A DNA stretch of 64,000 nucleotides from positions 62,248,001 to 62,312,000 of the forward strand of contig OX597818.1 of the NCBI GenBank assembly GCA_951406725.2. Direction: 5' to 3'. Below, in pieces: positions 48,879-51,037 of this stretch (within the stretch, counting starts at the first letter, position 1; every line of letters begins with the position of its first letter). The notes beneath the pieces are model-generated. The model ran no database searches. It saw only the letters and a program-made list of their open reading frames with translations, and was not told the DNA's origin. The stretch comes from Octopus vulgaris (taxonomy: Eukaryota). The translations under genes were made by a program, and so were the position numbers.

Positions 48879-49749
48879 GCTATTCTATATACACGGGTTG
48901 CAAAAAATACAGGATGGTCACGGCTGAAAGGCTTTTAACCATAGGTCGCTTCGATCAGAATTGAACTGGATTTGAGCAATATCAGTAAACTGCAGACGAT
49001 AGAAAGGAGTTCAATCCACAGCAGTTCTGGGAACATTGAAGGCTACTTGTTTGCGAGTGCTTGTTGTGTAGGTTATTGTTATTAAAAAAAATTGACCGGT
49101 GTAGTATTAACTTCTAAGCATGGCTACATGATAACCGAGTGGTTAATAAGTTCGCTTTGATTCCACGAGGTTATGCTTCCGGGTTACAGGAAATTTTGCC
49201 ATAAGCAGTTTTGCAGAGGGAAAATTTGTCGCGAGAAATTTCGTTTTACAGGACTTCATCACAGGGTCTTTTTTTTCTTTTTAATGTTTGACGTTGAATA
49301 AGGCTTCTATAAAAGAGTTTATCATTCTTGAAAATAATGCTTATAAAATACGCTTTATCGGTCTGGGAATCGAAACCGCGATTCCGTTGCCCGAACCCTG
49401 GGACATTGCACCTCCATGACTGATATATATATATATATATATATATATATATGTACACATATATACATATATATATATATATATATATATATATATATAT
49501 ATATATATATATATATATATATATTTTTAATCAATATAGGGTGGCAAAAATTTTGTAGAATTTTTTTGCCACCAGCGGCCTAGCGGGAAAAAAATTAAAT
49601 AGTCATAGACCATTTATAAATTCAACATCACGATCAAGGAACAGCCATAATAGGCCATTCACCCACTAGAAATAACAGCCAAAGCTTTCAACCGCAAAAT
49701 AACATCAATTCCGTAAACAGGAGAAAATTAAAAAAACGTTTACCCTGTA

Positions 49750-49857
49750 ATTTCTTATACGATGCACCGTTTCGTCTACTGTTTAATGGTAAAACTAACC
49801 TGATTAAATTAAATCAAGCCAATCTTCCATAGGCCCTTAGATTCATCAGTAAGAAAT
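49750..49857 (-). ncRNA. Type I HHR (left-arm copy)
   Basis: Reverse complement of 50594-50701. Confidence 0.85.
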
Positions 49858-50593
49858 AGCCATATCGGAACAGATATTTTCACGAGGCATTTCTGTTGCT
49901 GCCTCGACAATATCTGACCTAAAATTTTCAAATCATCAGACTCGCGCCAAATTTATCGGCAGCAAATAAATATAAGCCGCCGATTCCATTACGGAATTAA
50001 CCAGAAAATTCATAATTAATCAATATAGGGTGGCAAAAAATTTTGTAGAATTTTTTTGCCACCAGCGGCCTAGCGGGAAAAAATTAAATAGTCATAGACC
50101 ATTTATAAATTCGACATCACGATCAAGGAACAGCCATAATAGGCCATTCACCCACTAGAAATAACAGCCAAAGCTTTCAACCGCAAAATAACATCAATTC
50201 CGTAAACAGGAGAAAATTAAAAAACGTTTTTTTAATTTTCTCCTGTTTACGGAATTGATGTTATTTTGCGGTTGAAAGCTTTGGCTGTTATTTCTAGTGG
50301 GTGAATGGCCTATTATGGCTGTTCCTTGATCGTGATGTCGAATTTATAAATGGTCTATGACTATTTAATTTTTTCCCGCTAGTTGCTGGTGGCAAAAAAA
50401 TTCTACAAAATTTTTTGCCACCCTATATTGATTAATTATGAATTTTCTGGTTAATTCCGTAATGGAATCGGCGGCTTATATTTATTTGCTGCCGATAAAT
50501 TTGGCGCGAGTCTGATGATTTGAAAATTTTAGGTCAGATATTGTCGAGGCAGCAACAGAAATGCCTCGTGAAAATATCTGTTCCGATATGGCT

Positions 50594-50701
50594 ATTTCTT
50601 ACTGATGAATCTAAGGGCCTATGGAAGATTGGCTTGATTTAATTTAATCAGGTTAGTTTTACCATTAAACAGTAGACGAAACGGTGCATCGTATAAGAAA
50701 T
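50594..50701 (+). ncRNA. Type I HHR with 8-bp stem I and extended stem II
   Basis: atttctta-CTGATGA-atcta...tagac-GAAA-cggtgcatcg-TA-taagaaat; predicted GUA cleavage after 50693. Confidence 0.88.
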
Positions 50702-51037
50702 TGCAGGGTAAACGTTTTTTTAATTTTCTCCTGTTTACGGAATTGATGTTATTTTGCGGTTGAAAGCTTTGGCTGTTATTTCTAGTGGGTGAATGGCCTA
50801 TTATGGCTGTTCCTTGATCGTGATGATATATATATATATATATATATACATATATATACATATATATACATATATATATACATACATATATACATACATA
50901 TATACATATATATATATATATATTTGGTGAAATAGAAAGATGAATAATCTTGTGCAGAAGATTTAGCTGCTATTTTTAACCATGTGGTTCAGCAACGTAG
51001 AGGTTCTCTCCTTTCTCGTGTGCGGAATTCCTGTTTC

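Follow-up and report, generated by a model that had tools for sequence, protein, structure and literature searches.

A hammerhead-bearing retrozyme family of Octopus vulgaris carrying the likely insertion footprint of Penelope-like elements

The question raised by this locus is how a short repeat carrying a hammerhead ribozyme came to be stored as a partial tandem that folds back on itself into a long palindrome. In the window (the whole stretch of 64,000 nucleotides analysed here) the locus lies between a left (TA)n target at 49423-49524 and a right one at 50826-50923. If the unit is numbered on the hammerhead strand (q1 = 50015, q489 = 49527), one full 489-nt copy occupies 49527-50015 (- strand), its 3' end being the long, tailed end (L), and a second, 5'-truncated unit of the same arm (q279-489) occupies 50016-50225 (-); the repeat can be followed at 50016-50229 with 98% identity over 216 columns, which gives 1.43 copies. 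The left arm (-) is composed of q279-489 plus q1-489, and the right arm (50226-50825, +) of q279-489 followed by q1-389, where it ends at a short site (S); the shared motif, a hairpin and the S end itself form its right boundary (50768-50825, +). The two arms are joined 5' to 5' with zero spacer at 50220-50231, a head-to-head junction centred on the palindrome AAAAACGTTTTT, i.e. a self-complementary microhomology. Over 600 nt each, the left (49626-50225) and the right (50226-50825) arm differ at five places (three substitutions and two one-base indels). The sequence-only reading had described a head-to-tail 489-bp unit of about 1.4 copies with its junction at 50015/50016, a spacer-free fold-back into 600-bp near-identical arms, a placement inside (TA)n and a complete type I hammerhead in each arm, and all of this was recovered, the hammerheads lying at 49857-49750 (-, predicted cut after 49758) and at 50594-50701 (+, predicted cut after 50693). 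The 50015/50016 junction reflects the phase set by the long 3' end and not the ribozyme site; a circle made by the ribozyme is predicted to close at unit position 258/259 (q258/259). With a single hammerhead on each strand, the locus is unable to free a monomer of its own by being cut twice and, with an A·C closing pair in addition, this copy is probably a dead end. As argued below, it is one copy of a non-LTR retrozyme family with the insertion footprint of Penelope-like elements (PLEs).

The young multi-copy family with tandem arrays that the genome was expected to contain does exist. Searching the assembly (2.8 Gb, 227 contigs) returned 1,728 candidates, the 40 scored ones holding at least 194 matches, of which the full-length ones are 93-100% identical; exact matches to a 23-nt stem II marker number 2,707 genome-wide, against 0 for the reversed control. 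The first 100 marker matches by position, all on contig C1, correspond by hand count to 36 loci, 16 of which contain at least two same-strand units at unit spacing, while 15 have matches on both strands, in all 15 cases head-to-head and never tail-to-tail. Extrapolating from 36 loci per 100 matches, the family comprises roughly a thousand dispersed loci. Arrays reach 10 or more units in one orientation, are bounded nearly always by (TA)n and by no LTR flank, and consist of units without protein coding. Subfamilies reach down to 88% identity, and in the set nearest to the query units of one locus are on average 99.2% identical and those of different loci 98.0%. Contigs from four sequencing runs (three organism labels; two guessed to be RNA, two of unknown kind) cover most of the unit with subfamily alleles, a finding that attests presence only and is silent on expression, strand, ends and circles. 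Two pairs of loci (L192 and L193 on C30; L191 and L195 on C32 and C13) share the same insertion and flanks, as a segmental duplication or haplotype copies in the assembly would.

The hammerhead strand of the unit folds at -146.8 kcal/mol (z -5.8) and the opposite strand at -103.8 kcal/mol (z -5.1), none of 100 shuffles being as good in either case, and where copies differ on one side of a pair only, these changes in most cases leave a G-U pair on the hammerhead strand. On the basis of the better fold and of these changes, the hammerhead strand is likely the RNA strand, and the earlier remark that the G-U wobbles fall on it is in agreement with both the fold energies and the pairing kept among copies. 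The related remark that the unit is nearly all hairpins stands as far as its high degree of structure is concerned, but the best fold shows no local hairpin at ttccgtaatggaa: there, UUCCGUAA pairs with the distant UUACGGAA. The absence of a long ORF holds also round the circle: in the circularised unit the longest stop-free stretch is 47 codons on the hammerhead strand and 70 on the other. An endless ORF, imaginable in a unit whose length is a multiple of 3, is ruled out by 8-13 stops per turn in every frame.

In the right-arm hammerhead (+ strand) stem I pairs 50594-50601 with 50694-50701, the CUGAUGA core lies at 50602-50608, the base of stem II with its A·C closing pair joins 50609-50613 to 50673-50677, and GAAA (50678-50681) precedes a palindromic stem III (50682-50691). 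CUGANGA is kept in 146 of the 147 monomers that cover the hammerhead; positions C3 U4 G5 A6 N7 G8 A9, G12 A13 A14 and A15.1-U16.1 are invariant, while N7 may be any of the four bases and H17 is either A or C, in a set of hammerheads picked by the core pattern itself, which one of 147 failed in the nearest set. An Rfam search at gathering score gave no match in the window. Unconstrained RNAalifold recovers the hammerhead fold from 22 monomers spanning the subfamilies (chosen by hand), and in this alignment 4 of 136 pairs covary, all of them in hammerhead stems I and II, the monomers being related so that covariation counts sequences and not events, which are few. In the hammerhead stems 99.2% of cells are paired, a value attained by 0 of 500 shuffles and compared with 36-47% in slid controls. 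Stem III is palindromic in both main variants (CGGUGCAUCG, CGGUAUACCG), with self-duplex energies of -17.5 and -18.8 kcal/mol vs -0.2 and -2.9 for the hairpin, and some copies are intermediate between the two, their palindrome being interrupted by a mismatch. Palindromic stem III and dimer activity of hammerheads have been described in PMC4209133, where, in the sections available, G-C at 10.1-11.1 is termed highly conserved; here this closing pair is never G-C, A-U being the commonest state and G·U, U·U and A·C occurring as well. The caveat once attached to the A-C pair closing stem II is mostly lifted: it is real at this locus, but it represents a minority variant (14 of the 147 nearest monomers, this locus included), most copies having A-U. 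For three of five sequences folded singly the hammerhead fold lies 2-3 kcal/mol above the best fold, and of nine Xenopus retrozyme dimers assayed in vitro a single one cleaved, according to the available part of 10.64898/2026.07.22.740005. Taken together, conservation and pairing support a type I hammerhead in the family units that is predicted to be self-cleaving.

The outer 3' ends of the arms are not scattered along the unit. They fall at S (q383-395) or at L (q486 to +8), about 100 nt apart, each running into (TA)n with AT microhomology. Among 53 loci ranked by score, the 37 head-to-head ones with both ends in view comprise 35 with L+S and 2 with L and another position, and 14 of the 53 are single-armed at a 40-nt threshold, several of these showing a very short second arm on inspection. 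In a sample taken by position, 26 of 36 loci are head-to-head, 22 of them L+S and 4 with one end elsewhere (L005 and L050 belong to both samples; L374 holds two adjacent insertions and was counted once). No head-to-head locus with L+L or S+S occurs among the 37 score-ranked or the 26 position-sampled ones, and no ORF was found in the non-TA end of L090 or in the 5' flanks of single-arm loci. By analogy, the interval between S (q389 here) and L (q489 to +4), which at this locus occupies 49527-49626 (-) at the outer end of the left arm only, is the "tail" of PLEs, described as 30-40 bp long and often present at one end only in the sections available of PMC8557442 and PMC3846280. The family shows the tail at one end, with about 100 nt vs the published 30-40 bp and within the 67-145 nt of the Hydra-like elements of this genome. 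The in vitro work on the PAc protein (PMC11167929) places the tail between two RT start sites on the RNA, and has both target strands cut and extended, with a dimer predicted. Head-to-head arms, a one-end tail, an AT-rich target and 5' truncation with microhomology joins are likewise found in PLE insertions (PMC8557442 and PMC3846280, each in part; PMC11167929), for which partial tandems and an inverted 5'-truncated copy are also described in the available text of PMC8557442 and PMC3846280. A PLE-type insertion structure, as originally supposed, is in agreement with the head-to-head arms and the end rule; what distinguishes the retrozyme from published PLE insertions is that it has no ORF, a tail of about 100 nt and a short/long pairing that is nearly a rule rather than a tendency.

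Young PLE families are present in the same genome, both Neptune-type (N1-N3, N5) and Hydra-like (H1-H3). H1 has a 2,590-bp unit with 717 open codons, RWK and DKT motifs, a hammerhead and (TA)n, and matches the Hydra-clade description in the accessible part of PMC8557442 (<3 kb, single ORF, RWK, DKT, C-terminal EN, hammerhead, (TA)n), its placement being by description and by no tree. The H1 search returned 19,225 candidates, relatives included; H1 copies are 99-100% identical to each other, and a Pfam search of the H1 protein matched no family. H1 (2.59 kb), H2 (~3.36 kb) and H3 (~3.62 kb) are very young and very abundant Hydra-clade PLEs with open ORFs, full-length tandem arrays and hammerheads, the core being CCGAAGA in H1, a copy of which lies at L156:6051-8640 (G000:C3:37.23 Mb). 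Among 17 head-to-head H1 loci with both ends in view, drawn from 20 stretches chosen for opposite-strand matches and not for end type, 16 are S+L, with a 67-nt tail and (TA)n, and one has an aberrant end. Tails measure 67 nt in H1, ~71 in H2, ~145 in H3 and ~36-40 in N1. As for the Neptune-type elements, the one at L085:1081-4781 has overlapping ORFs of 479 and 781 open codons in different frames, a layout kept in L071, L073, L074 and L083, for which a programmed frameshift or a second ORF is possible.

The partner enzyme was not revealed by sequence. The end of the retrozyme compared with eight PLE end regions (H1, H2, two variants of H3, N1, N2, N3, N5) gives shuffle-level similarity (z -1.5 to 0.9), so that N1, N2, N3, N5 and H1, H2, H3 were all rejected as partners by sequence, and in 56 stretches around sites of the shared motif, a search that is not exhaustive, none has the motif at the 3' end of a PLE ORF. 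The autonomous PLE sharing this end that had been anticipated was found in neither set. A PLE fragment beside a retrozyme end in L053 was also discarded, the other 39 best-scored copies of this repeat stopping before the shared piece. Tblastn with one Neptune ORF against 54 locus stretches and the window returned two detached EN scraps only, and with H1 over the loci no divergent match beside an array. Likewise, no examined copy of the family was an ordinary pLTR attached to an RT ORF, which is what an origin as mere element ends would have looked like. The architecture does speak, in that Hydra-clade PLEs combine a (TA)n target and a hammerhead (PMC8557442, in part) as the retrozyme does, and the Hydra-like PLEs of this genome have multi-unit tandems, S/L pairs and tails that bracket its 100 nt, whereas that of Neptune N1 is ~36-40; the three Hydra-like groups examined have no sequence in common with it. 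In L042 a retrozyme L arm abuts, with no TA in between, a 205-nt stretch of H1 pLTR (99% identical) that stops at the short site of H1. Architecture, tail length and this one chimera make the Hydra clade a somewhat probable donor, and a single case, L270, in which the related family X (see below) is joined to a Neptune-type fragment, points to another clade.

Different explanations might account for the palindrome. Fold-back chimeras occur in long reads, and this locus is known here from the assembly alone; an assembly or read artefact is nonetheless extremely improbable, given that the arms differ at five places, that head-to-head loci are counted in dozens with junctions that vary from one to another, that their outer ends obey a fixed rule common to an unrelated element, and that the 15 two-strand loci are never tail-to-tail. 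The worry expressed in the sequence-only reading is thus removed as regards the palindrome in kind. Head-to-head repeats of PLEs have been explained by self-priming (PMC3846280, in part) and the tail by EN resolution (PMC8557442, in part); in such a scenario the inverted arm would derive from one priming followed by fold-back, with EN resolving the intermediate at the second site. The present locus, which folds back exactly at a palindrome and whose arms both begin near q279, would fit, as would the nested arms of 41 of 50 retrozyme loci and the haplotype that the two arms of a locus almost always have in common: differences at 64 diagnostic sites amount to 2.8% across arms and 1.6% within arms, against 28.6% between loci (a value inflated by the way the loci were found), only 4.5% of between-locus pairs being identical, and in L048 and L089 private variants are fixed in all five covering units of both arms. 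Since a copy made by fold-back has to be contained in the first arm, non-nested arms count against self-priming, and in 9 of the 50 retrozyme loci (4 of 31 score-ranked, 5 of 19 position-sampled; 6 of the 37 and 7 of the 26 were left out for internal rearrangements, odd ends or set overlap) and in 9 of the 17 near-identical H1 loci, close to the half expected under independent truncation, each arm has sequence absent from the other. Later deletion at palindrome centres could mimic this pattern, although the H1 copies are almost without differences from one another. Further points against self-priming are that the arms of L042 come from two different elements and that those of the present locus differ at q436-441, a recurrent error spot lying between two predicted stems and seen in ~20 pieces of different haplotype. 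(In many loci small substitutions and deletions cluster in the slightly wider q436-449, together with 5' truncations and template switches.) We therefore consider self-priming unlikely and two independent priming events, favoured over it by the retrozyme and H1 data, probable; most simply, S and L of a single RNA would be primed one after the other, an occupied site not being reusable. A second RNA is occasionally involved, as is seen in L042 and in L039, a mosaic of subfamilies. An origin as a satellite that arose from a detached pLTR (a scenario discussed in the available sections of 10.64898/2026.07.22.740005) and expanded by local unequal crossing-over, with palindromes as later rearrangements, would agree with tandem arrays of 99.2% mean identity within loci and with some variants being common to neighbouring units. 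Crossing-over would not, however, yield some thousand scattered loci, each stopping in (TA)n at one or the other of the two fixed sites, truncated to a variable extent on the 5' side and following the S/L rule strictly, and we regard this origin as very unlikely.

A further alternative concerns the template. Arms of several kilobases cross the cut site many times, which implies a circle or an uncleaved multimer; the end-to-start junction, originally taken as a sign of a circular template, does not by itself favour the former over a multimeric transcript. Clustering of 5' ends at the ribozyme cut was not seen (7 of 100 arms end in q251-275), and the lack of a single 5' stop there argues that cleaved linear monomers are not the main template. 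It is possible, though rather doubtful, that the same element and the same PLE enzyme rely on a linear multimer, transcribed across a genomic array and left uncleaved, with the hammerhead as a passenger or serving 5' processing only. This would be in keeping with hammerhead mutants being without effect on PAc insertion in vitro (PMC11167929), cleavage being dispensable there, with the non-canonical 10.1-11.1 pair, and with the 15 private variants found in some but not all units of an array (interspersed in L047; 112 singletons are uninformative), for which recombination at a later time would also account. Against it stand the covarying stems and the conserved core, together with arrays that are near uniform despite many haplotypes and with seven locus-private variants fixed in all covering units, which need a one-monomer bottleneck. 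The recurrent error spot at q436-441 likewise speaks for a circle. The balance tips slightly towards a circular template, and circles have been reported for coral, mussel and axolotl retrozymes in the available part of PMC7229834. Nothing here supports the word "replicon", used in the sequence-only reading, in the sense of RNA-to-RNA copying. In the ten-unit array of L047 (G000:C5:74.57 Mb) a single private variant is present in every other one of the first six units, a pattern expected from a dimeric circle or from duplication of a two-unit block.

That the retrozyme is PLE-mobilised we hold to be very probable, the insertion footprint supporting this earlier proposal with no partner identified by sequence. 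As a whole, the locus and its family are probably best explained by a retrozyme put into (TA)n by a PLE RT/GIY-YIG enzyme that primes twice, at two fixed RNA sites, once per target strand. According to this model, arrays with at least two same-strand units would be transcribed, and paired hammerheads joined via the palindromic stem III would excise a unit-length RNA that a host ligase might circularise. The structured 3' domain would then be bound by a PLE protein (probably a Hydra-clade one, which may act as a dimer) that would nick both (TA)n strands; one target strand would prime at S and the other at L of the same RNA, so that no site is used twice. Each RT would run a variable distance, going round the circle to yield multi-unit arms, and the two cDNA ends would be joined by microhomology.

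The predicted 3' domain lies here at 49529-49684 (-) and includes the motif TTTGGCTGYTATTTCTA, a four-way junction and a terminal hairpin just before L, the S site falling, in the predicted structure, in the loop of the second inner hairpin of the junction. With C for T, the motif upstream of S has 4,102 exact sites in the genome (control 0), and most of the 56 stretches around it fall in other hammerhead repeats (family Y; a 563-nt unit in L268), a handful belonging to an unrelated repeat. Further non-coding hammerhead tandem families (Y, ~563 nt; X, ~600 nt), which carry this end motif too, were met in L268, L400, L253, L265 and L110. In X and Y, short and long ends lie ~85-110 nt apart and occur in head-to-head pairs. 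When each is folded on its own, the ends of the present family (A), of X and of most Y1 all form a four-way junction and a terminal hairpin, built from different stem sequences (z -2.0 to -5.8); the junction is absent from the folds of several Y variants, the sequence similarity of related ends to A is weak (z 0.5-6.2), and a joint A/X/Y fold on a sequence-only alignment retains the terminal hairpin only (7 pairs, 3 covarying). Recognition of a predicted 3' domain by its shape is a lead, not a result. More speculatively, we may imagine that PLE insertion is an obligate two-site twin priming on one (circular) RNA, with S on one target strand and L on the other, that pLTRs, tails and inverted copies all stem from rolling-circle reverse transcription, and that a superfamily of non-coding hammerhead circles (A, X, Y) hijacks Hydra-clade enzymes through the shape of a common folded 3' domain, on which both start sites are displayed, without sequence homology; we put this forward tentatively, as an idea that could well be wrong.

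The retrozyme class and its link to PLEs are already in print. Metazoan non-LTR retrozymes, in what is available of PMC7229834 and 10.64898/2026.07.22.740005, are likewise non-coding tandem repeats of low GC with a type I hammerhead per unit, highly self-paired, with a palindromic stem III suited to dimers and PLEs in the genome. The unit described here (489-493 nt) exceeds the 150-450 of the former source and falls within the 51-972 of the latter; it differs from published retrozymes in its 68-nt stem II, in a 10.1-11.1 pair that is never G-C and in its preference for (TA)n targets. Neither the available sections of PMC7229834, where the words "inverted" and "microsatellite" are absent, nor those of 10.64898/2026.07.22.740005 report arms placed head-to-head or a pair of fixed 3' ends. 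The published link between retrozymes and PLEs consists of co-occurrence and pLTR similarity, whereas here it is an insertion footprint, with no pLTR similarity found. The MRC1-type non-autonomous elements of Chlamys (PMC8557442, in part) are likewise non-coding PLE passengers, multicopy and head-to-tail, but their 3' end generally resembles that of the autonomous partner and they are mostly without canonical hammerheads. The supplementary files of PMC8557442 list Hydra families and hammerheads, which may overlap with the elements described here. No prior account of this retrozyme family, of a ~100-nt tail, of the near-strict end pairing or of the evidence against self-priming was found in the literature searched, exclusive of subscription papers, Repbase and supplements.

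The origin of the tandem and inverted ends of PLEs and of their tails has been named an open question (PMC8557442, in part; PMC11167929). In the present case it is the retrozyme that bears a PLE insertion footprint, at hundreds of loci and in company with very young autonomous elements that follow the same rule. Models of PLE end formation are narrowed by the pairing of one short with one long end, by the haplotype common to both arms and by arms that are not nested. In the twin priming of L1, both target strands prime and a 5' inversion results, with the 3' ends of both segments facing out; the second primer acts at variable internal sites and the segments do not overlap. The retrozyme differs from L1 in having a constant second site and arms whose sequences overlap.

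The TA tract of this locus also hosts a second, small head-to-head insertion (window 50917-51184), deriving from the Hydra-like family H3 and made up of an inverted long end (50917-50963) and of a hammerhead with a short end (51023-51184). These two parts are separated by a 60-nt filler (~50964-51022) that repeats window positions 48530-48595, 2.4 kb off, in inverted and nearly exact form. Further on, the - strand at window 51440-52030 harbors the 3' fragment of a LINE-like ORF (YSLQRRRERY), presumably of the CR1/L2 type.
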